Below, one piece after another: positions 44,638-63,419 of a stretch of 64,000 bases of DNA. The translations under genes and the position numbers were made by a program. Each line of letters opens with the position of its first letter. The first letter of the stretch is position 1. Source of the stretch: Escherichia coli (GTDB taxonomy: Bacteria; Pseudomonadota; Gammaproteobacteria; Enterobacterales; Enterobacteriaceae); assembly GCF_030013205.1 (NCBI RefSeq), contig NZ_CP122648.1. One strand, 5' to 3'. A model generated the notes under the pieces. The model did no database searches and had not been told where the DNA came from. It saw only the letters and a list, made by a program, of their open reading frames with translations.

Positions 44638-44856
44638 TCACATCCACATAATTTGCTGCCCTGACGGCAACGGGTGCGGCCTCACGGCGTGGACTTCTCC
44701 CGGCTTCACGATGTATCGCTGTACCGACTCATAAGTGATGAACGTGGCGCTGCAATTCACGTTCTGACACTGGTGATAACGCTCTTTTGTCGTGTCAGTG
44801 ATATAGCGACTTGTACGCGCATGTGCGGCATGCTGGCATAAAGGACAATGAAACAT
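44638..44856 (-). CDS. ogr: late gene transcriptional activator Ogr (C4 zinc finger)
   Basis: ORF trimmed to MFHCPLCQHAAHARTSRYITDTTKERYHQCQNVNCSATFITYE… (72 aa). Confidence 0.9.
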   Translation of the reverse strand: MFHCPLCQHAAHARTSRYITDTTKERYHQCQNVNCSATFITYESVQRYIVKPGEVHAVRPHPLPSGQQIMWM

Positions 44857-44937
44857 CGCGAGCACCTCTTCCGGTTTTGTTGATGGTGCCATTTTAGTTA
44901 ATTTACCCTTATAAAACAAACAGATAAAAACAAAACA

Positions 44938-46580: not shown

Positions 46581-46594
46581 TTTTCGTCACCTCC

Positions 46595-48142: not shown

Positions 48143-48145
48143 GCG

Positions 48146-48349
48146 TTACTCCCACAGATTGACAGTTTCAGCCACGGGCGCGGTCTGAACGTCGGGCAGT
48201 TCGACGGCGGTGCCGTGCGGCAGCACCGCGCCCAGTTCAGCCAGTCCCGGATTTGCGGCGAGCACGGCTTCGACCACGCCCTCAGTGCGCCCGTAATACC
48301 GGACACAGATGGCGTCGAGCGTGTCGCCCTGTAGCGCAAAGGTCTTCAT
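48146..48349 (-). CDS. X: tail protein X
   Basis: ORF trimmed to MKTFALQGDTLDAICVRYYGRTEGVVEAVLAANPGLAELGAVLPHGTAVELPDVQ… (67 aa). Confidence 0.85.
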   Translation of the reverse strand: MKTFALQGDTLDAICVRYYGRTEGVVEAVLAANPGLAELGAVLPHGTAVELPDVQTAPVAETVNLWE

Positions 48350-48858
48350 CAGATTTGACTCACGATGCAGCGCGGCTTGTCCTGGATGCGCGCCACCGCC
48401 CAGCGCATATCCCGCCACAGCTCATCAATGGTGCTGTCAATGCTGTCGGCCTTCTTGTCGCCTTTCGCACTGGCATCCACGCCGCGGTAACGCTCATAAA
48501 GCGACGCGGTCGCCATCGCACACACAGCGCGCTCGTAGTAAAAAACTTTGATGCTTTCACCGTCGATGTCGTCCGCCGGAACGTCCGCCAGACGCGTAAA
48601 ACCGGCGGCAATTTTCTGTTCGCGGTACTCGTACAGCTCCGCATTCGTTTCCGCCATGCCTGACTTGATGGCCTCACGCAGGCGGGCGGGGGCGACGGTC
48701 TGCTCAAGGCGCATACGTTCCCGGACACGCTTCGGGTCGATATCGGGAAAAAAGAACGTGTTTTTAATCACCGGCTCGTCGCCTGCCGGTTGCGGGATGA
48801 CCACCGTACCCTCACCGGACACGGGAGCCTCCTTTCGCGGAATAATCAGCGTCATCAT
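48349..48858 (-). CDS. L: capsid completion protein L
   Basis: ORF trimmed to MMTLIIPRKEAP (169 aa). Confidence 0.8.
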   Translation of the reverse strand: MMTLIIPRKEAPVSGEGTVVIPQPAGDEPVIKNTFFFPDIDPKRVRERMRLEQTVAPARLREAIKSGMAETNAELYEYREQKIAAGFTRLADVPADDIDGESIKVFYYERAVCAMATASLYERYRGVDASAKGDKKADSIDSTIDELWRDMRWAVARIQDKPRCIVSQI

Positions 48859-48957
48859 GACTACCTCTGAAAAGTCGGGCGGTGGACGCCGGTGCAGTGT
48901 CAGGTGATTCACCCTCACTGACCGGCGTGCCGCCCTGGCGCGGGGCGCATTCGGTTG

Positions 48958-49701
48958 TTAACTGGCTTTCTTTTTCGGGCGTCCACGTTTTGCCGGTGTC
49001 ACGCTCCGGGTCTTACGCGGGGTACGGGTGGCCGCTTTGGGCTGCGGCTCCGGCTTCGGTTTCAGCTCCCGCTCCAGTCGTTCAATCTCTTTTTTGACGC
49101 CTGCCTGACAGTCGAGCTGTGTCGCACGTTGCAGGTGAGCCAGCGCCCCTGCGGCATCACCAGCGTCACGCAGAAACAGACCGGTGATTTTGTGCAGTTT
49201 TGCGCGCACTTCATCAGGCATGTCAGCCGTGGCGGTCAGTTCGAGGGTGTCCATCAGCAGGCGGGGATCCACAGACTCACCGGCAGCGTGAGCGCGCATG
49301 GCCGCAAGCGCCACCTCCTCGGTGAACATGTACGGCGGGGTGCGGCGGTGTTTACCCGGCATGGTCAGACCGTACTTCAGGGCATAACGGGCAATCTCCA
49401 GCGCACCGGCAATATCGCCGGTATCCAGACGCCACAGCATGACCGTCATCAGAATGTCATCCTGTGCACCTTTGCCCTGCTCCAGCACGCCGTTCACCCA
49501 CGGCAACCAGAACGGCAGCAGTTCGCGTTTTTTCGCGGCCTTCAGCTCTTTTGAATAAATCGCTTTCAGTGTGCGCTGGTCTGCGGCGAGCTTAACCAGC
49601 ATCTGCTCATAGACAGTTGCATGTCGCAGCGGGGCGGCTTCCCGCTGCGCGGTCATCGCTGCCGAGACCCGCATCATGTGGCGCTGTGCGGGACTCGTCA
49701 T
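48958..49701 (-). CDS. M: terminase endonuclease (small) subunit M
   Basis: 247-aa ORF in the M position between L and N. Confidence 0.8.
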   Translation of the reverse strand: MTSPAQRHMMRVSAAMTAQREAAPLRHATVYEQMLVKLAADQRTLKAIYSKELKAAKKRELLPFWLPWVNGVLEQGKGAQDDILMTVMLWRLDTGDIAGALEIARYALKYGLTMPGKHRRTPPYMFTEEVALAAMRAHAAGESVDPRLLMDTLELTATADMPDEVRAKLHKITGLFLRDAGDAAGALAHLQRATQLDCQAGVKKEIERLERELKPKPEPQPKAATRTPRKTRSVTPAKRGRPKKKAS

Positions 49702-49704
49702 CGG

Positions 49705-50778
49705 TTACGCTCCCGGCTCTGCGGTCGCCCTGGCCGGTGTGGAGAAATCACCGACCTTAATTTTTTCCACCAGGCAACCGGCGGCGTAGTCTTCCACCAC
49801 GTAATCAATGTTCATTGACTCGTAGTTCTCCACGCGGTCGAGTTTCGGGTTTTCCTCAATCACGCGGCGATGGCTGTCATCCATGTAGTAGATGGACAGG
49901 TTTTCCAGCTTCGTGATGAGCATCGCATCCGCCGGGAAGTACGGGACGCGTACCGCCGGCAGGTTACCGATGCGTTTCTGGCTGATGATGACGTCAGCGG
50001 CCAGCATTTCGCTGTTGTCCTGCTCTTTGTTAACGATGGGGAAATACTTGTCCGCCAGTAGCTGACGCCCCACAATCACCACAAGGTCAGGGTCTTCCTG
50101 ATACCACGGCTCAATCAGGTTGTTGGTCGCATCCATCACCAGTGCATCAAGGCTGGCATAATCACCGCCCTTACCCACGCGGATAACCTCAGAGGTGGTG
50201 CGGCCTTCCTCGTCAGTGACCTTGCTCATCACACGCGCCGGGGCTTCATTGCGGTATTTCTGCAGCCAGCCAACCGCCACATCCTGCAGCATCGGATTGC
50301 TGCTGCGGTCAGAGGTTTCGGCACGCTTCACGCCGTTAAAACCGGCCATGATGAAATCAAGGGACTGGCGTTTGATAATGGCGTTACGGATACGGAGCTG
50401 GAAATCCTGATAACGCGCCCACAGGTCAAGCGTTTTGTAGCGGATATAAAAATCGAAGTTAATCTGGTCGCATTCGTACTTGTTAGACGCCAGCTTCGAG
50501 AAGTCCTTCGGCTGACGCTCGGTGCCACCGGCGGTGTCGGTGGTGCTGGCGATGGAGCCGGTGACACCGATACCAATTTTTTCCCCTTTCATTTCGCTGA
50601 CCGGCACAATGTTGATGCGGGTCAGAAAATCAGAGGACTCCTGCATGGTGTTCATCAGGGTCTGGGTGACCGACGGTTCAACGGTGAATTTTTTCGACAC
50701 ATCACCGGCGTCGATGCCGTTCAGTTCGGCAACACGGGACAGGTAGGCATTAAATTTAAAGCGGGTTTCCTGGCGCAT
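49705..50778 (-). CDS. N: major capsid protein N
   Basis: 357-aa ORF. Confidence 0.85.
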   Translation of the reverse strand: MRQETRFKFNAYLSRVAELNGIDAGDVSKKFTVEPSVTQTLMNTMQESSDFLTRINIVPVSEMKGEKIGIGVTGSIASTTDTAGGTERQPKDFSKLASNKYECDQINFDFYIRYKTLDLWARYQDFQLRIRNAIIKRQSLDFIMAGFNGVKRAETSDRSSNPMLQDVAVGWLQKYRNEAPARVMSKVTDEEGRTTSEVIRVGKGGDYASLDALVMDATNNLIEPWYQEDPDLVVIVGRQLLADKYFPIVNKEQDNSEMLAADVIISQKRIGNLPAVRVPYFPADAMLITKLENLSIYYMDDSHRRVIEENPKLDRVENYESMNIDYVVEDYAAGCLVEKIKVGDFSTPARATAEPGA

Positions 50779-50836
50779 AGTTTTTCCTGAAATTAAGGGT
50801 TAATCGTGAAGGTTTTTCCGGACTGACTGACGCCGG

Positions 50837-51691
50837 TCAGCAGTTCGTCATCAGGGCGTCACCGCCACCGCCGGTGGCCTTGCTGCGGCGCTGCTGGGTC
50901 AGACTTTCGGTGTGGTCGAGACTGTTTTTCAGGCGGGTGAATGCCTGGCTGGTTTCATCCGCCCTGTCAGTCACCTCCTGCTTAAGTGCGGAAAAGGCGG
51001 TTTCCATCTCAGCGAGGCGCTGCTCAGTGGCGCTCAGCTTTTCCTGCACATGTTCAGCAACAGCGGTCACCGCTTCATGCACATCATTCAGACGGGCGTC
51101 ATCGCTGGCCTGTTTGCGGCCAAAAATGGATTTCACCTTTTCGGTCAGGGCGGTGAACACGGTTTCAGGCAGGTCTTCAAATTCCAGCTCAACAGGCGTT
51201 GCCACTGAAATCAGGTTTTCAGGGCTTAATTTGAAGCGGTTCAGGGGGTTGTGTTTTGCCGTGCGGCAGAATTCCAGGTATTCCGTGCCGAGGCTTGCCG
51301 GGTCATCGGTGACGGCCAGACCCACCAGATAACATTTGCCGGTATTGGCAAAGTTCGGCTGAATTTCCATTGAGGTATAGACCTTCTGCGCGGCCTTGTT
51401 CATCGCGATAAGGTCATCGGTCGGGGTGATTTTCGCAAACAGCGCCCATTTGCCTTTCAGCGCCGAATCGTCATCAATCTTTTCGGCCTTCAGTTCAACC
51501 ACATCGCCATAACGTTTAAAAATACCGTCAGGCAGGATGCCGCGCAGATGTTCCAGGTTAATGCGGCAACCATAGACGCGCGGGTCAAAGGTTTCAGCCA
51601 TTTCCTGAATATCCTGCGCACTGATGACACGCCCGTCACAGGTGTCACCCTCAACGCCGATACGAAAGAATTTTGAGACTTTTTTTGCCAT
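50837..51691 (-). CDS. O: capsid scaffolding protein O
   Basis: ORF trimmed to MAKKVSKFFRIGVEGDTCDGR (284 aa). Confidence 0.8.
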   Translation of the reverse strand: MAKKVSKFFRIGVEGDTCDGRVISAQDIQEMAETFDPRVYGCRINLEHLRGILPDGIFKRYGDVVELKAEKIDDDSALKGKWALFAKITPTDDLIAMNKAAQKVYTSMEIQPNFANTGKCYLVGLAVTDDPASLGTEYLEFCRTAKHNPLNRFKLSPENLISVATPVELEFEDLPETVFTALTEKVKSIFGRKQASDDARLNDVHEAVTAVAEHVQEKLSATEQRLAEMETAFSALKQEVTDRADETSQAFTRLKNSLDHTESLTQQRRSKATGGGGDALMTNC

Positions 51692-51864
51692 TGTCAGGAG
51701 TCCTGAATAGTGATTAGAGGAGTCACATGTCGGCATCAGTTTCCCGACGATGCGCATCCTCCGCCATCAGTCCCGGATGGCTTATCACTGACACAACAGC
51801 ACCTTAGCGAATCGCGGGGCGCGACTCAGTAGGCTTGCCGTGTATTCATCACGGCGAGGTATTC
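51692..51864. promoter_or_regulatory. divergent phage late promoter region (O-operon and P-Q operon; Ogr-dependent)
   Basis: intergenic region between divergent O and P; call is by position in the P2 map, no operator motif confidently identified. Confidence 0.4.
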
Positions 51865-53637
51865 ATGACCATCACCACAGACACCACTCTTTTACACGAC
51901 CCGCGTCGTCAGGCGGCGCTGCTGTACTGGCAGGGGTTTTCCGTGCCGCAGATTGCCGCCATGTTGCAGATGAAACGCCCGACGGTGCAGAGCTGGAAAC
52001 AGCGCGACGGCTGGGACAGCGTTGCCCCCATCAGCCGTGTCGAAATGAGTCTGGAAGCGCGGCTGACCCAGCTCATCATCAAACCGCAGAAAACCGGCGG
52101 TGACTTCAAGGAAATTGACCTGCTCGGACGCCAGATTGAACGGCTGGCACGGGTCAACCGTTACAGTCAGACCGGCAACGAGGCAGACCTTAATCCGAAC
52201 GTCGCTAACCGCAACAAAGGCGGGCGTCGCAAACCGAAAAAGAATTTTTTCAGCGACGAAGCCATCGAAAAGCTGGAGCAGATTTTCTTTGAGCAGTCTT
52301 TCGACTATCAGTTGCACTGGTATCGCGCCGGGCTTGAGCACCGCATCCGCGATATCCTGAAATCCCGCCAGATTGGCGCGACGTTTTATTTTTCCCGCGA
52401 GGCGCTGCTGCGTGCCCTGAAAACCGGTCATAACCAAATTTTTCTGTCGGCCAGTAAAACGCAGGCGTATGTGTTCCGCGAATACATCATCGCCTTTGCC
52501 CGTCTGGTTGACGTTGACCTGACCGGTGACCCGATTGTCCTGGGCAATAACGGCGCAAAACTGATTTTTCTCGGCACCAACTCCAACACCGCGCAGAGCC
52601 ATAACGGCGACCTGTACGTCGACGAGATTTTCTGGATCCCGAATTTTCAGGTACTGCGTAAGGTGGCATCAGGTATGGCCTCACAGAGCCACCTGCGCTC
52701 GACCTATTTCTCCACCCCGTCCACGCTGGCGCACGACGCCTACCCATTCTGGTCGGGTGAACTGTTCAACCGGGGACGCGCCAGCGCCGCTGAACGCGTG
52801 GAAATCGACGTCAGTCATAACGCCCTTGCCGGGGGGCTTCTCTGTGCGGACGGCCAGTGGCGGCAGATTGTCACCATTGAGGACGCCCTGAAAGGTGGCT
52901 GCACGCTGTTCGACATTGAGCAGCTCAAACGTGAAAACAGCGCCGACGATTTTAAAAACCTGTTCATGTGTGAATTTGTTGACGACAAGGCGTCGGTGTT
53001 CCCGTTCGAGGAGCTGCAACGCTGCATGGTCGACACGCTGGAAGAATGGGAAGACTATGCGCCGTTTGCCGCCAATCCGTTCGGCTCCCGCCCGGTATGG
53101 ATTGGTTACGACCCGTCACACCGTGGCGACAGCGCCGGATGCGTGGTGCTGGCACCGCCGGTGGTGGCCGGAGGTAAATTCAGAATACTTGAGCGTCACC
53201 AGTGGAAAGGCATGGACTTTGCCACTCAGGCGGAATCCATCCGCAAACTCACCGAAAAATACAACGTCGAATACATCGGAATTGATGCCACCGGCCTCGG
53301 TGTCGGCGTGTTCCAGCTCGTGCGCTCGTTCTATCCCGCCGCGCGCGATATCCGCTACACGCCGGAAATGAAAACCGCAATGGTGCTCAAGGCAAAAGAC
53401 GTCATCCGCCGTGGCTGTCTGGAATATGACGTCAGCGCCACCGACATCACCAGCTCGTTCATGGCTATCCGCAAGACCATGACCAGCAGCGGACGCAGCG
53501 CCACCTATGAGGCCAGCCGTAGCGAGGAAGCCAGCCACGCCGACCTCGCCTGGGCGACCATGCACGCCCTGTTAAATGAGCCACTCACCGCCGGTATCAG
53601 CACCCCGCTGACATCCACCATTCTGGAGTTTTACTGA
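51865..53637 (+). CDS. P: terminase ATPase (large) subunit P
   Basis: ORF trimmed to MTITTDTTLLHDPRRQAALLYWQGFSV (590 aa). Confidence 0.9.
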   Translation: MTITTDTTLLHDPRRQAALLYWQGFSVPQIAAMLQMKRPTVQSWKQRDGWDSVAPISRVEMSLEARLTQLIIKPQKTGGDFKEIDLLGRQIERLARVNRYSQTGNEADLNPNVANRNKGGRRKPKKNFFSDEAIEKLEQIFFEQSFDYQLHWYRAGLEHRIRDILKSRQIGATFYFSREALLRALKTGHNQIFLSASKTQAYVFREYIIAFARLVDVDLTGDPIVLGNNGAKLIFLGTNSNTAQSHNGDLYVDEIFWIPNFQVLRKVASGMASQSHLRSTYFSTPSTLAHDAYPFWSGELFNRGRASAAERVEIDVSHNALAGGLLCADGQWRQIVTIEDALKGGCTLFDIEQLKRENSADDFKNLFMCEFVDDKASVFPFEELQRCMVDTLEEWEDYAPFAANPFGSRPVWIGYDPSHRGDSAGCVVLAPPVVAGGKFRILERHQWKGMDFATQAESIRKLTEKYNVEYIGIDATGLGVGVFQLVRSFYPAARDIRYTPEMKTAMVLKAKDVIRRGCLEYDVSATDITSSFMAIRKTMTSSGRSATYEASRSEEASHADLAWATMHALLNEPLTAGISTPLTSTILEFY

Positions 53638-54671
53638 TGAGCAAGAAAAAAGGGAAAACACCGCAACCTGCGGCAAAAAAAATGACCGCCAGCGCCCCGA
53701 AAATGGAGGCATTCACCTTTGGTGAGCCGGTGCCGGTACTCGACCGCCGTGACATTCTGGATTACGTCGAGTGCATCAGTAACGGCAGATGGTATGAGCC
53801 ACCAGTCAGCTTTACCGGTCTGGCAAAAAGCCTGCGTGCTGCCGTGCATCACAGCTCACCGATTTACGTCAAACGCAATATTCTGGCCTCGACATTTATC
53901 CCACATCCGTGGCTTTCCCAGCAGGATTTCAGCCGCTTTGTGCTGGATTTTCTGGTGTTCGGTAATGCGTTTCTGGAAAAGCGTTACAGCACCACCGGCA
54001 AGGTCATCAGACTGGAAACCTCACCGGCAAAATATACCCGCCGTGGTGTGGAAGAGGATGTTTACTGGTGGGTGCCGTCCTTCAACGAGCCGACAGCCTT
54101 CGCGCCCGGTTCCGTGTTTCACCTGCTGGAGCCGGATATTAATCAGGAGCTGTACGGCCTGCCGGAATATCTCAGCGCCCTTAACTCTGCCTGGCTGAAT
54201 GAGTCAGCCACGCTGTTCCGCCGCAAGTATTACGAAAACGGCGCTCATGCCGGATACATCATGTACGTCACCGATGCCGTGCAGGATCGCAACGATATCG
54301 AAATGCTTCGCGAAAACATGGTTAAGTCGAAAGGCCGCAACAACTTTAAAAACCTGTTTCTCTATGCCCCGCAGGGGAAAGCTGACGGCATTAAAATTAT
54401 CCCGCTCAGTGAAGTGGCGACGAAGGACGATTTTTTTAATATCAAAAAAGCCAGTGCCGCAGACCTGCTGGACGCGCACCGCATCCCCTTTCAGTTGATG
54501 GGCGGCAAGCCGGAGAACGTCGGGTCGCTGGGTGATATTGAGAAAGTGGCAAAGGTCTTTGTCCGCAATGAGCTTATCCCGTTACAGGACAGGATTCGGG
54601 AAATAAACGGCTGGCTCGGTCAGGAGGTCATCCGCTTTAAAAACTACTCACTGGACACTGACAACGGCTGA
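53637..54671 (+). CDS. Q: portal protein Q
   Basis: 344-aa ORF; start overlaps P stop. Confidence 0.9.
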   Translation: MSKKKGKTPQPAAKKMTASAPKMEAFTFGEPVPVLDRRDILDYVECISNGRWYEPPVSFTGLAKSLRAAVHHSSPIYVKRNILASTFIPHPWLSQQDFSRFVLDFLVFGNAFLEKRYSTTGKVIRLETSPAKYTRRGVEEDVYWWVPSFNEPTAFAPGSVFHLLEPDINQELYGLPEYLSALNSAWLNESATLFRRKYYENGAHAGYIMYVTDAVQDRNDIEMLRENMVKSKGRNNFKNLFLYAPQGKADGIKIIPLSEVATKDDFFNIKKASAADLLDAHRIPFQLMGGKPENVGSLGDIEKVAKVFVRNELIPLQDRIREINGWLGQEVIRFKNYSLDTDNG

Positions 54672-54676
54672 ACATC

Positions 54677-54698
54677 GCCGCCTGCGGGCGGCTTTTTT
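54677..54698 (+). terminator. rho-independent terminator after Q
   Basis: GCCGCC-TGCG-GGCGGC followed by TTTTTT. Confidence 0.6.
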
Positions 54699-54840
54699 AC
54701 ACCCTGTCATCACGCCCTCACACGCTCACCACCGCACAAAACACCCCGCAGACACACCAACGCCTCAACGGGCAGACTAAACGCCGTCACGACGCGCTCA
54801 GACGCTGAAAAAATAAAATCAGCACCACCGCCAGCGCGCA

Positions 54841-54859
54841 GTGCTTTCCCCGCCTCGCC
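54841..54859. other. cos site (19-nt cohesive-end sequence)
   Basis: GTGCTTTCCCCGCCTCGCC is the reverse complement of GGCGAGGCGGGGAAAGCAC, the P2/186 cohesive end as I recall it; lies between Q and the cargo, as in the P2 map. Confidence 0.55.
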
Positions 54860-54987
54860 CGCCCGCTTCATGGGTCGGTTTTAATGCAGGTGCATGAACA
54901 CACTGGAGACGCACCAGTACTGGCGGTGGTCACGTAGATCCGCCCCTTAAAAGCCATGCAGAATAATGCAACTATTGCGGGCGTCGG

Positions 54988-55407
54988 CTAATCATCTTCT
55001 AAAGGTGGAATTTTGATGCCACTAATTAGCAGTACTTTCCGGTATGCCTCAAAAATAATGTTGTGTGTTTTTTGTAAATCATCGAGCATTTTTTGCCGTC
55101 CTGCTGGGGTATCTTTGGCAAAATTATGAGCGCGAAAAAAATCATGTGCCAAGTAGTTTCTGGCTTTAAGAGCATCTGACACATACTCCAGTGTATCAGC
55201 ATCCTCCACCATCCTAGACTTCAGTGCGTAATTCAATTTACCCAGCGTGTATTTATCCATTTCTAAAAACTGTTTTTTCAGCGACTGTATATCTTTCCCC
55301 TGACTCATATCATACTCAGTGATAACATTTATCAACTCAGTCTCCAGTAATTGAGCTGCTTCCGAAGCATAACCAAATTTCCAATAAACCGTATCAAGCG
55401 TCACCAT
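54988..55407 (-). CDS. hypothetical cargo protein with R-x4-H (HEPN-like) motif
   Basis: 139-aa ORF in AT-rich DNA, codirectional with and downstream of the HNH gene; contains ARNYLAHDFF. Confidence 0.6.
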   Translation of the reverse strand: MVTLDTVYWKFGYASEAAQLLETELINVITEYDMSQGKDIQSLKKQFLEMDKYTLGKLNYALKSRMVEDADTLEYVSDALKARNYLAHDFFRAHNFAKDTPAGRQKMLDDLQKTHNIIFEAYRKVLLISGIKIPPLEDD

Positions 55408-55498
55408 ATAATCTATTCCCCATATAACAAATCACACCCAAAATTAAATCATAACACATAATTAAATCTAACGCCTCTCTGCACCAGAAGAAGTCATG

Positions 55499-56830
55499 TT
55501 AACGCTTATCATGGAACTTTTTCCATTTTGTCATCAACTTTCCAGCATCAAGTTCTACATGATGCGGTTGTAGAGTTTTACCCTCAAACATAGTTTTGTG
55601 GATACAATTAATAGAGAAATGAACCGTTAAGTCCTCTGGATTAATCCCCATTAATCCTTTATCAAACATTCGGTGTAAACTTACTTCAAGTAACAGGCCA
55701 TTAGATGTGTTATTATTTGCTGATTCTGTTATTGCTTCAATATGTGCGGCTTCCAATATCCCCTCTGGCAATGGATAGCCAGTAATAGCACATCTGCCAT
55801 TGAAGTTATCCCAAACACGGCGTTTGAAATCAGCTTGATCTCCAGCATGACGGACTTTGTGAGTAACCTCGACTGTTCGTCCTGTAGCACAGGTATCGTT
55901 TGCGGCCTTGAAAGGATTAATTAGACTTTCATTAATGGCTATATCCGTTCCATCCATGATAAGAGATATTTCATTATTGGGTTCGGGTGATGTTAATGGA
56001 CTTATGTACTGATTGCTTAAAAAAGTCATACTAGATTCTTCATCAGTCGCGAGTTTCCACGCTTCTGATTGTGTCATTGTTAGCAATGCCGTTTGATAAA
56101 CTTGCTTATTAAAATAACGTTTATCTTTCTTGTAACTCCCCATATTAATAGTACTAGATTTAATCGGAAGTGTTTTATCACCAATTAGTAGATCACGTAT
56201 TTCTACAGTCTCTTCTAAGGTATCAATAGGAGCTACTATAGGGTTAGTAAACGGGTTATCTACATGATCTACGTGGTTGTGTCGTAAATGCCACTCTATA
56301 GCACTATCTTTTATATGTATCTCGCAGACAGGGCATACAATAAGCCCCATAGATGTTACAGGTAGCTTTTTGCCACCGATTAAGCGTAATGTATTTGCAT
56401 TCTGGTTATGTACTTTCTTTTGGTTCTGTGTCAGTACACTACGCTTAGCCTCTAAACGGGTCGGAATCTTAGCAAGATTAAGCGATTTACGGCTCTCTTG
56501 TCTCTCAAGATCATAGATCCGAATCCCTGCTTCAGTTTTGATTTTTGTCCACATAGAGATAGAACTAAGGAATTTATGTCCATGTACTTTTTCATAATCA
56601 GCATAAGCTTGCAAAGTAGCAGTGGAACTATCTAATCCTTTTTTACGGAGTGCTGTATATTGCTGAAAAAGATTAATAGCATGAGCTGTAATAGAGCGCC
56701 TATTCTCTATAATTTGCGCTTTTTTTGCTGCTTGTTCTGCTTGCAATGCTTTTTGTTCAGGGGTAAGCGACTTCTTTTTGGCTTTCTTGGTTCTTTTCTT
56801 ACTCAAAGTTTTCTTACTGTTATTGTTCAT
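55499..56830 (-). CDS. HNH nuclease-domain cargo protein (Lys-rich N-terminus, C2H2-like zinc finger, C-terminal HNH)
   Basis: 443-aa ORF; N-terminus SKKTLSKKRTKKAKKK; CPVCEIHIKDSAIEWHLRHNH; C-terminus GRCAITGYPLPEGILEAAHIEAI…SNGLLLEVSLHRMFDKGLMGI resembles the HNH endonuclease core; AT-rich. Confidence 0.7.
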   Translation of the reverse strand: MNNNSKKTLSKKRTKKAKKKSLTPEQKALQAEQAAKKAQIIENRRSITAHAINLFQQYTALRKKGLDSSTATLQAYADYEKVHGHKFLSSISMWTKIKTEAGIRIYDLERQESRKSLNLAKIPTRLEAKRSVLTQNQKKVHNQNANTLRLIGGKKLPVTSMGLIVCPVCEIHIKDSAIEWHLRHNHVDHVDNPFTNPIVAPIDTLEETVEIRDLLIGDKTLPIKSSTINMGSYKKDKRYFNKQVYQTALLTMTQSEAWKLATDEESSMTFLSNQYISPLTSPEPNNEISLIMDGTDIAINESLINPFKAANDTCATGRTVEVTHKVRHAGDQADFKRRVWDNFNGRCAITGYPLPEGILEAAHIEAITESANNNTSNGLLLEVSLHRMFDKGLMGINPEDLTVHFSINCIHKTMFEGKTLQPHHVELDAGKLMTKWKKFHDKR

Positions 56831-56939
56831 TTTGCAAGCCTTTAATCTAATTCATGGAAAGGGGCATTCACTTGCCCTGTATCCAGTAAACTGACATAAC
56901 ACGATATAAGCAAGCTCCGTAATTCTTTCATGTTAATCA

Positions 56940-59258
56940 TCAATGGTCCATTGTGAATCCCGGCCACTCATCAGCGACCGGATACGTGAATTTTTTACCG
57001 TCGTAATTTACAGTCGCGCCACGCGCCAGCGCCTCAAGCTCCCATCTCTGAGGCCTGATACCGTTCTGAGCAAGGTCTACGCGGATACGGGTAATTTGCA
57101 TTCGTTCTGACCGGGTCAGTCTGGCCGATGGTGCAATTTCATGCGGTTTTAACGGGCTTCCGTTTCTTTGCTGACGGTTTGGCGTTCTCAGGTCGTATTT
57201 TAATGCGCCCCTGAGCGCCCTCACGACCTCCGGTTCATTCCATTCAATAACACCGTCATCAACCAGATTAAGCACTGCTGCGGCGTGCTCAGAAGGAGTG
57301 GGAGCCGGTAACGAAGTATCACCGCTGGTGAGCTTTCCACAGTTATTGACAGGACTCCGAGGCGCGGCGATGCCGCTTTTTAAAGTCAAAGGCTCAACGA
57401 CCGGAACTTTCGGCACAATGCGCCAGTCCGTCGTTCTGGTGATATGAATATGACGCGCGCCGAGATGCGGCGCGTAAATGCCGACCACTCTCTCGACTTC
57501 TTCCTCGTATTCGTTAACGTCATCCGACGGGCTACGGGCGACCCTGACAGTCTGACAATCGCGCGGGACATTTGCCCCGCCCTGCGCGCTGATATACAGC
57601 GCAAAATCGCCACTGTCTGCGGCGGCGCGTGCAGCCTCCACGCGTTCGTCAAATTCATCAGCAATGCTGACGCCGCGAGGCAATTTACGTAGCTCACGGT
57701 AAGCTCCCATTGTCGGCAGGCCAACCGTTTTAAATTGCGGGATGCGCCACGTTGATGCCCATGCGGTAACAGCCGCCGCAGTATCTTTCAGCGGTCTGCC
57801 GGTATCGTTATCGAGCTGACCATCCAGTGCATAGCCGTCGATATTTTTTGAAATGTATTTCGCGATATATCCCGCAGCACCGCCCCGGTTAAGGTGTTTT
57901 GCCTGAAAACGGTTTCGCGCGGCTCCTCTTTCGTCGCCATCCTCTTTGAGCGCATAGCGACGCATGATTTCGATAATCTGGTTACGCTGGCGTGGATTAC
58001 AAAAAAGCATCATATGCCAGTGCGGCGTTCCGTCGTGGTGTGGCTCGACGACTCGCAAACCGTAGACCTGTAAATCATTATCCTTGAATGCCGTGCGCAT
58101 CAGGCTCCAGATACGGCAGAGATAACGCTGCGCATCCTTTGGATTAAATGCCTCATCATTCCAGCCGTGATTAAGCTGGACGGTTTTATTTTCGCCTTTT
58201 CCGACCTGACGTGTCGGGTGATACTTTGACGGCGCGGTAAGCGTGATAAACATCCCCACATCACCCTCTGAGGCGGCGTAACGCTCAATACCGGCAATGG
58301 TGTTCATCAGCTCCATCCGGCGAATTTCAGGATTAGAAATACTGCCCATCACCTTACTGATAAGGTCGATGCGCTCGCCGGTTTCCCTGTTTTCAAGGTC
58401 ACACGATTTAAGAAATTCCAGATTTGCCTGGCGGCGCGCACGCACATCACGAATGGCGTGTTTACTGGCATAAGGAGAACGGTCTTTATTGACCTCCCCG
58501 ACAGCTATCAGTAACGCTTCATGCCAGCGCATACGCTGGCCTTTAAGCTGATGAGTCCACCACTCATCGTTAAACAGACGGGCAATTGCAGAATATGCCT
58601 GCCTCGTGGTCATCTGTCCTTTACGGTATTTTTTCCAGTAGAGAGGGGAAATATTGAAAGCACGTGCAGCACCAGCAACATGACCATAGAGGTGAGCCTG
58701 CGCCTCATCCGTAAACAGCGATTCTTTTTCGCCATGCGCATCCACCCAGGCATCGCTGAGTTCCTCATACATCATGAAAAGCTGCGATGAGATACGGGCA
58801 GCAAACTTTTTCAGCTCCTTGTCATTCATTCCCGGCAGGCGCGCATAGTGGTCACGCTCTGCCAGAAACAGTAACGACGCGTCGGTGTTCATTTCATGGC
58901 GCTGATTCACACGCTCAATGCGCGGCCATAAACGACGCTGAAAAGTGGATGTGAGGAAATAAAACCCGTGCACCGGGCTTTTATTGCGCCGGATGTAGTC
59001 ATAGCGTGAAGTAAACAGCGAGCGCAAAAAGTAAGGCAGGCGGTTAATCGTGGATAAAACACCTTGCACCTGACGCATCTCGTCACGTGTAAGGGGTCTT
59101 TCGCGCCCGACAGCCTCGCGTGGCGCGTTCCATGCATAAGCACCTGTAAACGCCTTACCGGTGCCTGCGGCAAATGCTGACGGAGGGACAAAACGTCCGG
59201 AGGCTTTAACGGCCATGTGAGCCAAAAGCCTCTGAACAACGCTTGCTGAGTTGCTCAA
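56940..59258 (-). CDS. A: replication initiation endonuclease A (rolling-circle Rep)
   Basis: 772-aa ORF in the P2 A position; true start may be a few codons downstream. Confidence 0.85.
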   Translation of the reverse strand: MSNSASVVQRLLAHMAVKASGRFVPPSAFAAGTGKAFTGAYAWNAPREAVGRERPLTRDEMRQVQGVLSTINRLPYFLRSLFTSRYDYIRRNKSPVHGFYFLTSTFQRRLWPRIERVNQRHEMNTDASLLFLAERDHYARLPGMNDKELKKFAARISSQLFMMYEELSDAWVDAHGEKESLFTDEAQAHLYGHVAGAARAFNISPLYWKKYRKGQMTTRQAYSAIARLFNDEWWTHQLKGQRMRWHEALLIAVGEVNKDRSPYASKHAIRDVRARRQANLEFLKSCDLENRETGERIDLISKVMGSISNPEIRRMELMNTIAGIERYAASEGDVGMFITLTAPSKYHPTRQVGKGENKTVQLNHGWNDEAFNPKDAQRYLCRIWSLMRTAFKDNDLQVYGLRVVEPHHDGTPHWHMMLFCNPRQRNQIIEIMRRYALKEDGDERGAARNRFQAKHLNRGGAAGYIAKYISKNIDGYALDGQLDNDTGRPLKDTAAAVTAWASTWRIPQFKTVGLPTMGAYRELRKLPRGVSIADEFDERVEAARAAADSGDFALYISAQGGANVPRDCQTVRVARSPSDDVNEYEEEVERVVGIYAPHLGARHIHITRTTDWRIVPKVPVVEPLTLKSGIAAPRSPVNNCGKLTSGDTSLPAPTPSEHAAAVLNLVDDGVIEWNEPEVVRALRGALKYDLRTPNRQQRNGSPLKPHEIAPSARLTRSERMQITRIRVDLAQNGIRPQRWELEALARGATVNYDGKKFTYPVADEWPGFTMDH

Positions 59259-59481
59259 CCTGCACGTTTAAATCAGCAAAAGACTTTGCGCTTCCGGTCA
59301 GAATATCGTGATGCATCAGGCCTGAAACGAGCTGGCTTAATTTCGGGTAATAACCAACCACCGCCAGCCATTCCTGACCGGCGTTTTTACCGCTTTCAGC
59401 TCTCTTTTTCTCGTGGAGAATAAACTGAAAGCTGTCACTGGTAACGACATAACGTTCGCCAATTTCAATACGAATACTCAT
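59206..59481 (-). CDS. hypothetical early-region protein (P2 orf83-like position)
   Basis: 91-aa ORF, tightly packed codirectional array between B and A. Confidence 0.45.
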   Translation of the reverse strand: MSIRIEIGERYVVTSDSFQFILHEKKRAESGKNAGQEWLAVVGYYPKLSQLVSGLMHHDILTGSAKSFADLNVQVEQLSKRCSEAFGSHGR

Positions 59482-59702
59482 GCCGTTCTCCGGTAATGTT
59501 TGTTTTTTGCTTCAAAGACTGACTGACAGGAAACACAACGCGTGGCTGACGGGTAAGCCGCACGACGGGCAGCAGGTATTGGCGCGTCACACTCTTCGCA
59601 AACCAGCGCAGAAGCACCGCAATGTTTTACCCTTGCCGCGTTAATCTGGCGCTCCAGTAATTCAGCCTGTTGTTCCTGAATAAAATCTACGTTGTCCGGC
59701 AT
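59478..59702 (-). CDS. TraR/DksA-type C4 zinc-finger protein (P2 orf82-like)
   Basis: 74-aa ORF with CEEC…CVSC zinc finger (CGASALVCEECDAPIPAARRAAYPSATRCVSCQ). Confidence 0.6.
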   Translation of the reverse strand: MPDNVDFIQEQQAELLERQINAARVKHCGASALVCEECDAPIPAARRAAYPSATRCVSCQSVFEAKNKHYRRTA

Positions 59703-60007
59703 TACCAGTTCCTTTTGTCGTTCAGTTTTTTAAATTCATCAGCGCAATAGCTGGCGATTTCTGTCGTTAATTTCGTCAGTTCATCCACGGAGGAAATTTG
59801 CTTGTGAAATACAGCGCGTTTAACAAGTAAATTGACCACATCAGACAGGAGGTTTAATTCACTCTGATAAATCGCGATAACAGATTCAGTTATTTCGCGT
59901 TTTTCTTTATCAAGACCAAGTTGAATAAGAGACAAATCGCCATTTTTCATAACGGCGATTTTTAAGGCATTGTTCAGTAAAACAACTGAACGAGAACAGG
60001 ACATCAA
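59702..60007 (-). CDS. hypothetical early-region protein
   Basis: 101-aa ORF; start/stop overlaps with neighbours. Confidence 0.45.
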
Positions 60008-60261
60008 AGCACCTCCCCGCGAGACAATCCGATGTTGTGAAATTTTTCCGACTCCTGACTGAGCAGCTCGACTATCTCCACGCGGGATAACTCCGCCTTT
60101 GTGATGTGGCGAATCATGGCGTCAAGATGAGAAGAAAAGCGCGTCGCTGCATCGGCCTGTGCTTCGGTTCTGGCCTGTTGCAGCAGTAATGCGTATTTAC
60201 CGCACTGATTTTCAGAAACTGTATGCATGACTTTCTCCAGGCAAAAAGAAGCCCCGCACAA
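60004..60261 (-). CDS. hypothetical early-region protein
   Basis: 85-aa ORF; translational coupling to the next ORF. Confidence 0.45.
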
Positions 60262-60291
60262 TTAAGTGCGTTAAAAACTCTGGTTAATTAC

Positions 60292-60798
60292 TTAATGCAG
60301 ATATTGCTCTGGTTTTACCGACGTCAGAATTGTCGGTGCATACTCAAACAGGCTGAATAATTCACGTAATGCACGGAATAAAGCATCACGCCAGTAACAT
60401 GACTCTTCATTAATTCGCCAGTATGGCTGGTTGAATTCTTTTTCAGTCAATCCGGCATGCATAAATAAAGTGCGACGCTGACTGACTGTTAAAAAACTAA
60501 TATATGCATACTCACTTGCGCCAACCTGACGGCGTTTTGAGAATGCCCCACGCAATTCATCAATTGCACAAACCAGCCGTTCACGTTCGACGTCGTTCAT
60601 TTCTTCAAAACGCATCGTTGCGTGACGCTGTTTTAACTGCGCATGAAAGCAAACCGTTAGCCGTTCGCGCTCCATCATCTGATTATAATAATCACATGTA
60701 TCCTGCCAGCGAGGAACGGCAAGATGCTTACCAATTATCCGGCGCATAGCTGCTGGCTGTTTTTCAACGAGATTGAGCGTCATCACTGTCATTTCCAT
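60292..60798 (-). CDS. B: replication protein B (helicase loader-like)
   Basis: 168-aa ORF in the P2 B position downstream of cox. Confidence 0.7.
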   Translation of the reverse strand: MEMTVMTLNLVEKQPAAMRRIIGKHLAVPRWQDTCDYYNQMMERERLTVCFHAQLKQRHATMRFEEMNDVERERLVCAIDELRGAFSKRRQVGASEYAYISFLTVSQRRTLFMHAGLTEKEFNQPYWRINEESCYWRDALFRALRELFSLFEYAPTILTSVKPEQYLH

Positions 60799-60961
60799 AC
60801 CCTCCGGCTTTTCAGAAAGGTCAGAGCCTTTTTTAACGGACTCTGTTTTTTGGTGCGGATAATGATTCCCTTACGCCCCTTACCGTGGGTGATGGTGAAG
60901 TCAATCGCCCTTGGGCTTTCGTTACGCAGTAACTGAGCAATACAACGCGGTTCACTCATAA

Positions 60962-61234
60962 TCACAACCCCATCCACAAAAGCCATGCATCACGCTGTTC
61001 AACTGGTCGGTTATAAAACGCCTCTCGTACAGCGCGATTAAACTCTGGAATGAAAACCCACTTCTCACCGACACGAGCGTTCGGCTTACTTGGATCACGA
61101 AGCTCAATAACTGGCAATTTATTCTCTTTTACCATCTTGACTACAGCCGTTTCTGGCTTACCAAGTAACTCTGCAAACTTAACCGTATGTACCGCATCAA
61201 TCGGGTACTGAATCACATAGTCATTGACTTCCAT
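60962..61234 (-). CDS. cox: Cox excisionase / early-operon regulator
   Basis: 90-aa ORF ending …WLLWMGL, divergent from the C repressor. Confidence 0.7.
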   Translation of the reverse strand: MEVNDYVIQYPIDAVHTVKFAELLGKPETAVVKMVKENKLPVIELRDPSKPNARVGEKWVFIPEFNRAVREAFYNRPVEQRDAWLLWMGL

Positions 61235-61386
61235 TGATTAGCCCTTTTTGCTTTCGTGTTACCCTTATTAGATCCAGTCCCTTCTAGGTCGCCCCTGTCC
61301 TTTCTAGGGACTGGCTAACACACTCAAAAGGTCACCAATACACAACCTTTTGACGGGAATATAAGTCACCAATAGGTTACTGTCAA
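61235..61386. promoter_or_regulatory. immunity switch region (divergent early promoter and repressor promoter with operators)
   Basis: 152-bp intergenic region between divergent cox and C; inverted repeats (…CCAGTCCCTTCTAGG…CCTTTCTAGGGACTGG…). Confidence 0.5.
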
Positions 61387-61680
61387 ATGCAGACATTCGA
61401 AAAACTGAAAGCGATTAGGAAAGCAGAAGGCTTAACACAGGCGAAATTCAGCGAAATTAGCGGGATAGCTCTAGGAACAGTCAAAAATTACGAAAGTGGG
61501 CATAAAGACCCTGGTCTCAGCATCGTTATGCGAGTCACAAATACGCCTTTATTTAAAAAATATACGCTCTGGTTAATGACTGGTGATACGTCACCACAAG
61601 CTGGTCAGATCGCGCCGGCTCTCGCACACATTGGGCAAAAACCAACAGAATCAGACCACTCCGAAAAACAGACTGGTTAA
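61387..61680 (+). CDS. C: immunity repressor C
   Basis: 97-aa ORF with HTH (EGLTQAKFSEISGIALGTVKNYESG) and …KYTLWLMTGD…GQIAPALAHIGQ resembling P2 C. Confidence 0.8.
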   Translation: MQTFEKLKAIRKAEGLTQAKFSEISGIALGTVKNYESGHKDPGLSIVMRVTNTPLFKKYTLWLMTGDTSPQAGQIAPALAHIGQKPTESDHSEKQTG

Positions 61681-61719
61681 CACTCTATAAACATTATATT
61701 TTCACCATTTGTTACCAAG

Positions 61720-62730
61720 ATGGTGAATACAGCGTCAGAGGGCTTTCTTATGTCAATTAAGAAGCTCGATGATGGACGCTATGAAGTGGACATTAGACCT
61801 CGCGGTCGCGACGGAAAACGCATCCGCAGGAAATTTGAAAGAAAAGCTGAGGCTGTAGCATTTGAGCGATACACAATCGCCTACGCCAGCCAGAAAGAAT
61901 GGGCAGGTCAGCGAGCAGATCGCAGAACTTTGAGTGAGTTGCTGGACATCTGGTGGAAATATCACGGGCAAAACCACGAGCATGGAACAAAAGAGTTTAA
62001 TCATCTGCTCAAAACCATCAGCGGCATAGGTGATATACCAGTGAGCCGGATGAGCAAAAGAGCTTTGATGGATTATCGTTCCATGCGACTACGTGATGGT
62101 ATCAGTGCCGCAACGATAAACCGTGACATGTACCGATTATCCGGCATGTTCACAAAATTAATTCAATTGGATGAATTTTCCGGGCAACACCCAATTCACG
62201 GACTGCCGCCACTGGCGGAGGCCAACCCTGAAATGACGTTCCTGGAAAAAGCAGAAATCGAAAAACTGTTAAATGTTTTGGATGGTGATGACTTACTTGT
62301 CGCACTTTTATGTCTGAGCACTGGAGGAAGATGGACGGAAGTTGCCACGCTAAAACCAGCACAGATTACAAATTGCAGGGTTACCTTCCTGAAAACCAAA
62401 AACGGTAAAAAGCGAACCGTGCCGATTTCTGAGGAACTGGAGAAAAAAGTTAAAGAGGAGGCCAGCGCTAAATTATTCAAAGTTGATTATGAGAAGTTTT
62501 GCGGGATTTTACGCAGAGTGAAGCCAGATATACCACCCAATCAGGCAACCCACATCCTGCGGCATACATTCGCAAGCCATTTCATGATGAATGGGGGCAA
62601 TATAATCGCACTGCAACAGATTCTGGGACATGCGAGCATTCAGCAGACGATGGCCTATGCGCACCTTGCGCCTGACTACCTGCAAAATGCCGTCGCGCTG
62701 AATCCTCTAAAAGGCGGAGTGACGTTATAA
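61720..62730 (+). CDS. int: tyrosine integrase
   Basis: 336-aa ORF; C-terminal catalytic motifs (HILRHTFASHFMMNGG…LGHASIQQTMAYAHL); alternative start at 61750 (MSIKKLDDGRYE). Confidence 0.9.
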   Translation: MVNTASEGFLMSIKKLDDGRYEVDIRPRGRDGKRIRRKFERKAEAVAFERYTIAYASQKEWAGQRADRRTLSELLDIWWKYHGQNHEHGTKEFNHLLKTISGIGDIPVSRMSKRALMDYRSMRLRDGISAATINRDMYRLSGMFTKLIQLDEFSGQHPIHGLPPLAEANPEMTFLEKAEIEKLLNVLDGDDLLVALLCLSTGGRWTEVATLKPAQITNCRVTFLKTKNGKKRTVPISEELEKKVKEEASAKLFKVDYEKFCGILRRVKPDIPPNQATHILRHTFASHFMMNGGNIIALQQILGHASIQQTMAYAHLAPDYLQNAVALNPLKGGVTL

Positions 62731-62845
62731 ATTTCCCTTCTGAGTGTCCACATAGTGTCCACACTCTCAGAACTTTGTAGCCCTTCCAGTCCCTTATAGG
62801 TTTTCTTAAGTTACTGTTTTCTTACGGAAACTGATGTAAGTGATT

Positions 62846-62892
62846 GATAAAAAAAACCCCCACATCATGTGGGGGAAGACAGGGATGGTGTC
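62846..62892. repeat. prophage att site, cpxP-side copy of 47-bp direct repeat (also the cpxP terminator)
   Basis: identical to 44480..44526; on the minus strand reads as GC hairpin CCCCCACATGATGTGGGGG followed by TTTTTTTT, 24 bp after cpxP stop. Confidence 0.85.
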
Positions 62893-62915: not shown

Positions 62916-63419
62916 CTACTGGGAACGTGAGTTGCTACTACTCAATAGCTTCAACGATGAACTTTTTTGCCATTGCGTCACGTCACGCAACTGCTCCATT
63001 CGTTGTTGATGTTTCTCATTTAAAACCGCTTGCTGCTCCGGCGTTAACAGGCGATACATTTGGTTGCGGACTTTTGCCATCTCAACCTGACGAGCAATTT
63101 GCTCATTCGCCATTTTTTCTGCCTGTGCGCGCACAGCGTTTTCATCAAAATTTTCTGCGGTGACAAGGCGATGCATTGTCTCCAGTTCGCTAACATTAAC
63201 AGGAGGCTGTTCGTGCCGGGCCTGTTGCATAAGATCTCGCATCTGCTGACGCTGATGTTCGGTTAAACTTATGCCGTCGAACATATGGCTCTGCGTACTG
63301 CGCTGCGTAAGTTCTTCACCCGGATGCCAGTTATCGCCTGAACCGACTTCAGCAGCGTGGCTTAATGAACTGACTGCCAGCGTTGAGGCCATGACGGCAG
63401 CGGTAACTATGCGCATCAT
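62916..63419 (-). CDS. cpxP: periplasmic stress adaptor CpxP
   Basis: 167-aa ORF with signal peptide and paired [13 protein letters not shown] / [16 protein letters not shown] motifs. Confidence 0.9.

Follow-up and report, generated by a model that had tools for sequence, protein, structure and literature searches.

In phage P2, the genes int and C are carried on one strand and cox, B and A on the other, the promoters Pe and Pc lie face-to-face, and the repressor C acts on direct repeats (PMC1904263, PMC3936717). The related phage Wphi, which belongs to immunity class III and integrates at position 4104392 of the MG1655 chromosome (PMC3448106), is heteroimmune to P2, the two C proteins being 43% identical and their operators different, and Wphi lysogens hold Pe at 1-9% of its derepressed level (PMC1904263). 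Wphi Cox represses Pc, promotes excision in vitro and recognizes a direct repeat of 12 nt located between the two promoters, in the Pe-Pc region; P2 Cox activates PLL of the satellite P4, whereas P4 is not activated by Wphi Cox (PMC5009727). In addition, Wphi Cox did not complement a P2 cox3 prophage (PMC3936717). P2-like phages are known to carry a hotspot of defence genes at the cargo locus between A and Q (Rousset et al. 2022, PMC9122126), and defective P2-like prophages with conserved hotspot defence genes have been described (bioRxiv 10.64898/2026.02.27.708500).

The window analysed here is a stretch of 64,000 nucleotides (contig NZ_CP122648.1) that matches the chromosome of the porcine ETEC strain ETEC4079 at 100%. 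Between fieF and cpxP, the published integration site of Wphi, it carries an 18.4-kb P2-like prophage, and the region under study very probably comprises the lysis-lysogeny switch, together with the integration module, of a P2-like prophage of the Wphi type (Peduovirus, immunity class III) seated at the Wphi attachment site. As listed in Table 1, the gene order is that of Wphi, and the 20 genes other than Y and T are full length with 97.5-100% amino acid identity. The element and Wphi (AY135739 / NC_005056; switch AJ245959) have the same C, Cox, Ogr, control region, att core and site, while they differ in that the element is without Wphi 6934-19145, carries different cargo and has one SNP in each att arm. 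From A to attP, the alignment with Wphi was ungapped over 5,942 bp; positions 60900-62892 contain six substitutions, none of them in 61235-61386, and the DNA from 60900 to 62800 is 100% identical to that of Escherichia phage 899 (PV533660) and Yersinia phage GMG73 (OP880301). Both were deposited as phages, with full-length genomes of 33.8 kb; they have D178 in Int and the same C-int spacer as the element, and a different cargo between A and Q. At the level of sequence, the proteins and mapped regulatory sites of the module are identical to those of Wphi and/or of 899 and GMG73; since the one exception with respect to Wphi is a natural variant of Int, there is no ground in the sequence for doubting that the module would function, and this is a prediction. 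The first-pass annotation had described C, Cox and Int as full length within 61235-62730. All three are indeed full length (C and Cox 100% identical to the Wphi proteins, Int identical at 325 of 326 residues), but only C and Int lie inside these limits, cox falling just outside at 60962-61234.

Table 1. Features of the Wphi-type prophage, in window coordinates
Feature	Position	Strand	Remarks
attL copy of the 47-bp att core	44480-44526		GATAAAAAAAACCCCCACATCATGTGGGGGAAGACAGGGATGGTGTC; identical to 62846-62892 and Wphi 22550-22596
Two direct GTCCACA repeats, 11 nt apart, ogr-side arm	44576-44593	+	predicted Int arm-type sites
ogr, late-gene activator, 72 aa	44638-44856	-	C4 zinc finger Cys4/7/30/35; 100% identical to Wphi Ogr
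Tail gene D	44938-46101	-	full length (PGAP); 98.5% aa identity to Wphi, gapless
Tail gene U	46101-46580	-	full length (PGAP); 97.5% aa identity to Wphi, gapless
Y-T fusion ORF, in frame, 515 aa	46595-48142	-	holin Y residues 1-72 + tape-measure T residues 372-815
Head/packaging genes X, L, M, N, O (-); P 51865-53637, Q 53637-54671 (+)	48146-54671	-/+	full length, 97.6-100% aa identity to Wphi
cos cohesive end	54841-54859	-	GGCGAGGCGGGGAAAGCAC; matches Wphi left end; following 23 nt match Wphi right end
Cargo, 139-aa protein	54988-55407	-	cos-proximal variable locus
Cargo, 443-aa protein	55499-56830	-	cos-proximal variable locus; C-terminal HNH_2
Early operon 3' of cox: orf78, B, orf80, orf81, orf82, orf83, A	56940-60959	-	full length relative to Wphi
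cox, Pc repressor and excision directionality factor, 90 aa	60962-61234	-	100% identical to Wphi Cox; PF10743
Pc, promoter of the C-int operon, rightward	61234-61270	+	AJ245959 promoter feature transferred; 0 differences from Wphi
Two direct repeats CC(A/T)GTCC(C/T)TTCTAGG, 20 nt start to start, just 3' of Pc	61274-61288, 61294-61308	+	predicted Cox sites
C operator half-sites O2 and O1	O2 61331-61340, O1 61365-61374	-	TATTGGTGAC; 34 nt centre to centre
Pe, early promoter into cox, leftward	61352-61388	-	TTGACA, 17 nt, TATATT at 61386-61358; AJ245959 promoter feature
C, immunity repressor, 97 aa	61387-61680	+	N-terminal HTH; 100% identical to Wphi C; PF01381
int, tyrosine integrase, 326 aa	61750-62730	+	PF24624, PF00589
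int-side att arm	62743-62849		two AGTGTCCACA repeats 62743-62763, Cox-type repeat, IHF consensus
Third Cox-type repeat, int-side att arm	62786-62800
IHF consensus, predicted site	62837-62849	-	TATCAATCACTTA; one match
attR copy of the 47-bp att core	62846-62892		adjoins cpxP (62916-63416, -)

The 152-bp control region (61235-61386) does not differ from that of Wphi at any position, and C is related to the P2 C structure 2XCJ/2L49 (E=4.5e-25). In a promoter scan, Pe matched the consensus at 11 of 12 positions, and the start codon of C adjoins it; Pc is weak by consensus and was missed by the same scan, and its placement rests on the AJ245959 annotation. O1 falls between the two hexamers of Pe, in the spacer, whereas O2 is located downstream of the start site; the Pe/operator DNA is an exact match to the published Wphi oligonucleotide pEE938 (PMC1904263), and the operator repeats were also recovered blind by a repeat finder as family D3. 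In P2, the operators are 22 nt apart, compared with 34 nt here, and attB is different. The control region had been called divergent, which holds for the genes, as C and cox are divergently oriented, but not for the promoters, as Pe and Pc face each other (PMC1904263). By analogy with Wphi, the predicted immunity should cover the Wphi class (class III) and not P2.

The module has the architecture described above for P2, including a Cox with two predicted roles and a tyrosine integrase accompanied by putative arm-type sites, and its Cox is related to P2 Cox 4LHF (E=2.5e-20). P2 cox-boxes read TTAAA(G/C)NC(A/C), unlike the Wphi repeat. The Cox-type repeat listed in Table 1 has three matches in the window against 0.27 expected by chance and was likewise recovered blind by the repeat finder; its assignment to Cox rests on PMC5009727, which states the number and place of the repeats, not their sequence. 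Since Wphi Cox fails on a P2 cox3 prophage, the data suggest that the Cox of a P2 helper would not act on this element, and excision is predicted to require a Wphi-type Cox. The single change in Int relative to Wphi is A178D; the D178 allele is shared by phages 899 and GMG73, both deposited as complete genomes, and P2 Int has D in the same column. The residues R194, H268, R271, H294 and Y303 are present and align with identical residues of P2 Int 5C6K/5DOR (5C6K E=2.7e-82). Mutations in the catalytic Tyr/His of Int or in the HTH of C, which the first-pass annotation had named as evidence against a working module, are absent, the residues being in place and C being that of Wphi. An alternative Int start at ATG 61720 (336 aa) was rejected, because MSIKK, at ATG 61750, is the start in Wphi Int and P2 Int as well as in the PGAP annotation.

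In most complete E. coli genomes, the 47-bp att core occurs as a lone match. Within the attL core there is a terminator-like hairpin, which can be read as the terminator of cpxP. On the int side, the GTCCACA pair at 62746-62763 matches the ogr-side pair in motif and in its 11-nt spacing, and both pairs are predicted arm-type sites; these repeats were also recovered blind by the repeat finder. The int-side arm is identical to attP of phage 899 and differs from Wphi by one SNP (62832). The ogr-side arm of phage 899 differs from that of the element at a few positions, including 44571, where the element has G and both Wphi and 899 have C, 5 nt upstream of the first ogr-side GTCCACA. This variant could alter Int binding. 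It is conceivable, if quite improbable, that the module is intact in sequence and inert, being silenced or blocked in excision by the 44571 variant or by low Int, and that it confers neither immunity nor mobility. The 44571 SNP is unique to the lineage relative to Wphi and phage 899, and P2-type prophages are not known to be SOS-inducible and excise rarely, which would fit an inert module. However, the SNP lies outside the GTCCACA repeats, and C, Pc and the operators are identical to those of Wphi, whose lysogens repress Pe to the low levels given above (PMC1904263). Furthermore, because cox, B and A are intact, a silent C would free Pe, a state unlikely to be tolerated.

At the other end of the prophage, Ogr, which had been noted as intact, is complete over its 72 residues and gave matches to PF04606 (76.9 bits) and to the NF007241 equivalog (177.6 bits, cut-off 116). 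The prophage has one lesion only, a single deletion in its lysis and tail genes: Wphi bases 6934-19145 (12,212 bp) are absent, and the junction at 47926-47930 shows a 5-bp microhomology, TACCC. The deletion removed the C-terminus of Y, then K, lysA/B/C, R, S, V, W, J, I, H, G, orf44, FI, FII and E/E', and the N-terminus of T, and PGAP annotates the holin and tape-measure genes both as partial pseudogenes. Absent functions are the endolysin, spanins, tail completion, baseplate, fibres, sheath, tube and E/E', and T is truncated. On this gene content, the prophage is predicted to be unable to make particles, which bears out the first-pass view of an otherwise defective element. An assembly artefact was considered for this deletion and rejected, since six complete genomes that were assembled independently share the junction, and a seventh, K_EC180, shows in this same background a different and larger deletion. 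Only two of the four late operons of the P2 type, P/Q and O-to-X, still have the promoter region that precedes them; those preceding V and FI fall inside the deletion. The two late promoters that are left are expected in the O-P intergenic region (51692-51864). The motif TGT-N12-ACA is that of P2/P4 late promoters; the O-P intergenic region contains no exact match to it, and the expectation rests instead on the conservation of this region, which has five substitutions in 173 nt relative to Wphi.

From the published work on Wphi and P2, the following sequence of events can be proposed for the Wphi-type module. Pc would give rise to the C-int transcript, and C dimers on O1 and O2 would keep Pe off; cox, B and A would be silent as a consequence, and so, indirectly, would ogr and the late genes. 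This pool of C would also turn off Pe of an incoming phage of the same immunity class, conferring superinfection immunity to the Wphi class, not to P2. If Pe escaped repression, Cox would occupy the repeats just 3' of Pc and block C-int transcription, and Cox, Int and IHF acting on attL and attR would excise an 18.4-kb circle. With A, B, cos, M, P, Q, O, N and L intact, this circle could replicate and fill heads, yet it would be unable to make tails or to lyse the cell. A helper-dependent, satellite-like element, packaged and spread with the tails and lysis functions of a superinfecting P2-like phage, would have such a gene content (cos is present, and M, P, Q, O, N, L, A, B, cox and int are full length). 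We consider this way of life highly improbable. A co-resident P2-like helper was rejected, as the M-Q head block is single-copy: no second copy of P2-type head genes was found in the genome, and the M-Q block occurs once per ETEC genome among those listed, so that any helper must come from outside the genome. From P2/P4 packaging, the 18.4-kb circle would be about 56% of the Wphi genome, whereas a 36.7-kb dimer would exceed it. A heteroimmune helper, moreover, would not lift repression by Wphi C, and its Cox would probably be inactive here (PMC3936717). Sister strains also lack P or the entire head block, which argues against selection for packaging.

The early operon 3' of cox includes A, the replication endonuclease (758 aa), whose gene has the same length as in phage 899. 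Beyond the operon, the two cargo genes stand in place of Wphi orf91-orf98 and mth. For the HNH cargo, PADLOC returned weak HNH hits only, and the sole NCBIfam match, to a phosphorothioate-dependent restriction enzyme, was below threshold; the cargo fell into PHROGs families of unknown function, no sequence relative was found in the PDB, and DNA matches in the phage collection were limited to PSP3 gp38, which matched the 139-aa gene. Across these five resources (PADLOC, NCBIfam, PHROGs, PDB and the phage collection), we found no validated function for the HNH cargo. The same cargo is present in PEC41, within an intact P2-immunity prophage at the yegR site, and, in an IS3-disrupted form, in W13-16, within another late-gene-deleted prophage at the pflB site; with GPEC1446 and UPEC85 left out, no intact parent phage with both the same cargo and the same immunity was found. 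Like the defective P2-like prophages described previously, the element is a non-mobile remnant with cargo identical to that of an intact prophage (PEC41), but here the switch, integration and early regions are also intact and the cargo is without validated function.

Comparison of sister genomes distinguished three states of decay. Five genomes have the 12.2-kb deletion alone, ETEC4069 has in addition an in-frame 615-bp deletion in P, and K_EC180 (Korea) has lost window positions 46484-53351 (6.9 kb, U to P), with flanks that are 99.98% identical over 29 kb (3 differences). In all three states, C, Cox, Int, Ogr, A and the HNH protein have identical protein accession numbers. This series bears on the question of whether the host keeps the element for protection, through C immunity and the HNH cargo, with the late genes eroding and selection preserving those of the switch, int, the early region and the cargo. 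That the proteins just named remained unchanged through three decay states in one lineage is consistent with such domestication, as are the position of the cargo in the known A-Q hotspot (PMC9122126) and the precedent of defective prophages with defence genes (bioRxiv 10.64898/2026.02.27.708500). However, the two additional lesions both fall in late genes, which make up about 53% of the element, and the probability that both would do so by chance is about 0.25-0.3; with just two extra events and late genes amounting to about half of the element, chance hits are unremarkable and the decay series is too weak a test of selection. In addition, the genomes are near-clonal, so that decay by point mutation has had too little time to appear in any part of the element, and the cargo, with its weak PADLOC hits, has no validated defence function. 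Domestication is thus unlikely in our judgement. We are similarly doubtful of a protective island, stabilised in this pig-associated E. coli lineage, in which late genes were lost stepwise while selection kept the Wphi-class repressor and the HNH/139-aa cargo as two layers of anti-phage defence; the integrase and Cox would then have been kept because losing C control over an intact cox-B-A region would be toxic. The intactness of the Wphi-type module is explained most simply by the recency of the deletion, and selection to keep C while the early operon is potentially harmful may add to it.

Overall, these results place the module among systems that are already known and understood. It is at least 80% covered in 513 of 5,426 complete E. 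coli genomes (about one in ten), the switch is ordinary, and the value of the finding lies mainly in good annotation, as 25 years of work have been devoted to the switch of Wphi, its repressor, Cox and attachment site. In practical terms the value is modest. The nested deletions of the sister genomes provide a small, dated example of the decay of a P2-like prophage. The fieF-cpxP site is occupied in this lineage, and a supply of Wphi-type Cox could vacate it. Strains of this ETEC lineage are predicted to resist temperate phages of the Wphi class (Wphi, 899, GMG73, the vB_EcoM-12474 series and STYP1), and the predicted resistance could bear on phage typing or phage therapy.

Alignment of the P2-like coliphage Wphi (AY135739) with the window was ungapped over window positions 56951-62892 (Wphi 28491-22550), with six substitutions from 60900 to 62892 and none in the 152-bp control region (61235-61386). 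The first-pass annotation had described the repressor C, the excision factor Cox and the integrase Int as apparently full-length and the late activator Ogr as intact, and comparison with Wphi confirmed this for all four. The sole Int change, A178D, places in that column the residue that P2 Int also carries. Escherichia phage 899 and Yersinia phage GMG73 have this allele too; each is a database entry for a complete phage genome, and their DNA is 100% identical to window 60900-62800. The Int start codon is agreed by Wphi Int, P2 Int and PGAP, and residues R194, H268, R271, H294 and Y303 are all present and line up with P2 integrase (structure 5C6K, E=2.7e-82). Since the tyrosine-recombinase residues are in place, C is the Wphi C, and Pfam, NCBIfam and PDB searches were consistent with the gene assignments of the module, the mutations in Int or C that had been named beforehand as arguing against an intact module are absent. 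The early operon runs leftwards from cox through orf78, B, orf80-83 and A (ORF listing and translation). For orf78 (60789-60986, -), PGAP uses an upstream ATG, which makes the product 65 aa long and the gene overlap the 3' end of cox by 25 nt; the 56-aa form starting at 60959 is backed by Wphi and a PHROG profile.

Features of the prophage and its borders (window coordinates)
Feature	Position	Strand	Remarks
fieF	ends 44401	-	left neighbour of prophage
P2-like prophage	44480-62892		between fieF and cpxP
GTCCACA pair, ogr-side arm	44576/44587		11 nt apart; candidate Int arm-type sites
ogr	44638-44856	-	72 aa; 100% identical to Wphi Ogr
cos cohesive-end sequence	54841-54859		intact
cox	60962-61234	-	90 aa; ORF listing/translation; 100% identical to Wphi Cox
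Pc	61234-61270	+	transferred from AJ245959 promoter feature
CC(A/T)GTCC(C/T)TTCTAGG direct repeats	61274-61288, 61294-61308		20 nt apart, just 3' of Pc
O2 operator half-site	61340-61331	-	downstream of Pe start site
O1 operator half-site	61374-61365	-	TATTGGTGAC; within Pe spacer
Pe	61386-61358	-	TTGACA, 17 nt, TATATT; 11/12 consensus match; abuts C start codon
C	61387-61680	+	97 aa; ORF listing/translation; 100% identical to Wphi C
int	ATG 61750-62730	+	325/326 residues identical to Wphi Int
GTCCACA pair, int-side arm	62746/62757		11 nt apart
Third CC(A/T)GTCC(C/T)TTCTAGG copy	62786-62800		between int and att core
IHF consensus match	62837-62849		predicted site
cpxP	62916-63416	-	right neighbour of prophage

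On the minus strand, 61331-61386 is an exact match to pEE938, the oligonucleotide published for the Wphi Pe promoter and operator (PMC1904263). The operator half-sites O1 and O2, which the repeat finder picked up blind (family D3), lie 34 nt apart centre to centre, equal to the published Wphi distance. As placed, the early promoter Pe and the C-int promoter Pc face each other, yet the genes are divergent, and the transcripts would overlap by ~80 nt when the ends of the promoter features are taken as start sites. The earlier description of a divergent control region thus holds for gene orientation and not for the promoters, which are termed convergent in the literature (PMC1904263). The repeat CC(A/T)GTCC(C/T)TTCTAGG was matched three times against a chance expectation of 0.27. 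According to PMC5009727, the direct repeat bound by Wphi Cox is 12 nt long and lies in the Pe-Pc region, and we take the three copies to be predicted Wphi Cox sites.

From the Wphi and P2 literature, Pc would direct the synthesis of C together with Int, and C would bind O1 and O2 and block Pe; in Wphi lysogens a Pe reporter keeps 1-9% of its derepressed activity (PMC1904263). C should likewise shut down an infecting phage that has these operators, and since the module is shared at at least 80% coverage by 27 deposited phage records, a pool of homo-immune phages exists. P2 is heteroimmune, with 43% C identity and other operators. Firing of Pe should lead Cox to repress Pc, whereupon Cox, Int and IHF should excise the element; in vitro, Wphi Cox both represses Pc and promotes excision (PMC5009727). 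Satellite P4 is not activated by Wphi Cox (PMC5009727). Because a P2 cox3 prophage is not complemented by Wphi Cox (PMC3936717), we infer that the Cox of a P2 helper would not excise the element.

The 47-bp att core is identical at 44480-44526 and 62846-62892 (Wphi 22550-22596), and most complete E. coli genomes have it as a single match. The prophage lies where the literature places the Wphi site, at MG1655 4104392 (PMC3448106). The int-side arm is identical to phage 899 attP. The only att-region change not common to phage 899 is a G at 44571 (C in Wphi and phage 899), which precedes the first predicted Int arm-type repeat of the ogr side by 5 nt. A terminator-like hairpin within the core reads as the cpxP terminator, so integration keeps a complete copy 3' of cpxP and leaves a second between ogr and fieF, which probably shields fieF from prophage transcription. 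The chromosome (NZ_CP122643.1) of the Belgian porcine enterotoxigenic strain E. coli ETEC4079 matches window 43500-64000 at 100%, with five sister strains nearly as close, and window 1-43500 is the usual core chromosome from yijO to fieF. There, a 'cytoplasmic protein' gene (17634-18763, +), flanked by a 5'-nucleotidase gene and metL, carries a frameshift according to the ETEC4079 annotation; it has no relation to the prophage.

The element spans 18,366 bp compared to 32,684 bp for Wphi. Window 44480-47930 aligned to Wphi 22596-19146 and window 47926-54859 to Wphi 6933-1, indicating the loss of Wphi 6934-19145 (12,212 bp); the junction (47926-47930) shows 5 bp of microhomology (TACCC). The prophage is thus defective, as had been claimed: T has lost its first 371 codons, and the holin Y C-terminus, K, lysA/B/C, R, S, V, W, J, I, H, G, orf44, FI, FII and E/E' are gone. 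The remaining 20 genes with Wphi homologues align without gaps over their full length, at 97.5-100% amino acid identity. The in-frame junction creates a 515-aa chimeric ORF (46595-48142, -) joining Y 1-72, the membrane-spanning segment of the holin, to residues 372-815 of the tape-measure protein T; it sits 3' of the O-N-M-L-X late operon and is annotated by PGAP as two partial pseudogenes. The O-P intergenic promoter region (5 substitutions in 173 nt relative to Wphi) and Ogr are retained, so the head genes could be trans-activated. The regions 5' of V and FI, site of the other two P2-type late promoters, fall within the deletion. This genome has a single copy of the M-Q head-gene block and hence lacks a resident helper related in its head genes.

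Between cos and A, where P2-like phages have a known hotspot for defence genes (PMC9122126), the prophage has a 139-aa and a 443-aa gene (54988-56830, -) in place of Wphi orf91-orf98 and mth. The smaller product resembles PSP3 gp38, which was the only match of the cargo DNA in the phage collection. The larger has a C-terminal HNH_2 domain, ~320 N-terminal residues without an assigned domain, and a match, weak and below threshold, to phosphorothioate-dependent restriction enzymes. For the pair, only weak PADLOC matches, no PDB relative and no validated function were found. At 98.9-100% identity, it is present in 11 complete E. coli genomes out of 5,426. In PEC41 it lies in an intact prophage with P2 immunity integrated at the yegR site (locus L007, 20289-28089), and in W13-16 it is split by IS3, in a P2-like prophage at the pflB site (L008, 19553-23467). 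These copies indicate that the cargo passes between P2-like phages of differing immunity and integration types. The W13-16 prophage lacks everything between E and the 3' part of Q, a second case showing that late-gene deletions recur.

Further loss was found in closely related genomes. ETEC4069 (NZ_CP122679.1; L009, 8366-9523, corresponding to window 51865-53637) carries an extra in-frame 615-bp deletion in the large terminase gene P, leaving 385 aa instead of 590. The swine isolate K_EC180 (Korea; NZ_CP062203.1), with flanks 99.98% identical over 29 kb (3 differences), lacks window 46484-53351, from inside U to inside P (L006, 18277-18938), with a ~7-bp overlap at the junction; since this deletion spans the 12.2-kb junction, it may be later than, or independent of, that event. 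C, Cox, Int, Ogr, A and the cargo proteins have the same accession numbers across the ETEC genomes and K_EC180, and the sister genomes are too similar for point-mutation decay to appear. This series fits late-gene erosion with the regulatory core preserved, but with two events only in an element of which about half is late genes, it is not evidence of selection. Overall, the Wphi-class switch, the P2-type integrase/att system and Ogr showed their defining sequence features, with the Int arm-type and IHF sites as candidates; the original observation is real and its interpretation, in which immunity and excision are predicted functions, is sound apart from the corrections made here. The region is an already characterised module within a routine deletion derivative. 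The least ordinary reading, that the remnant is retained as a two-layer protective island of repressor immunity and HNH cargo, is unlikely.
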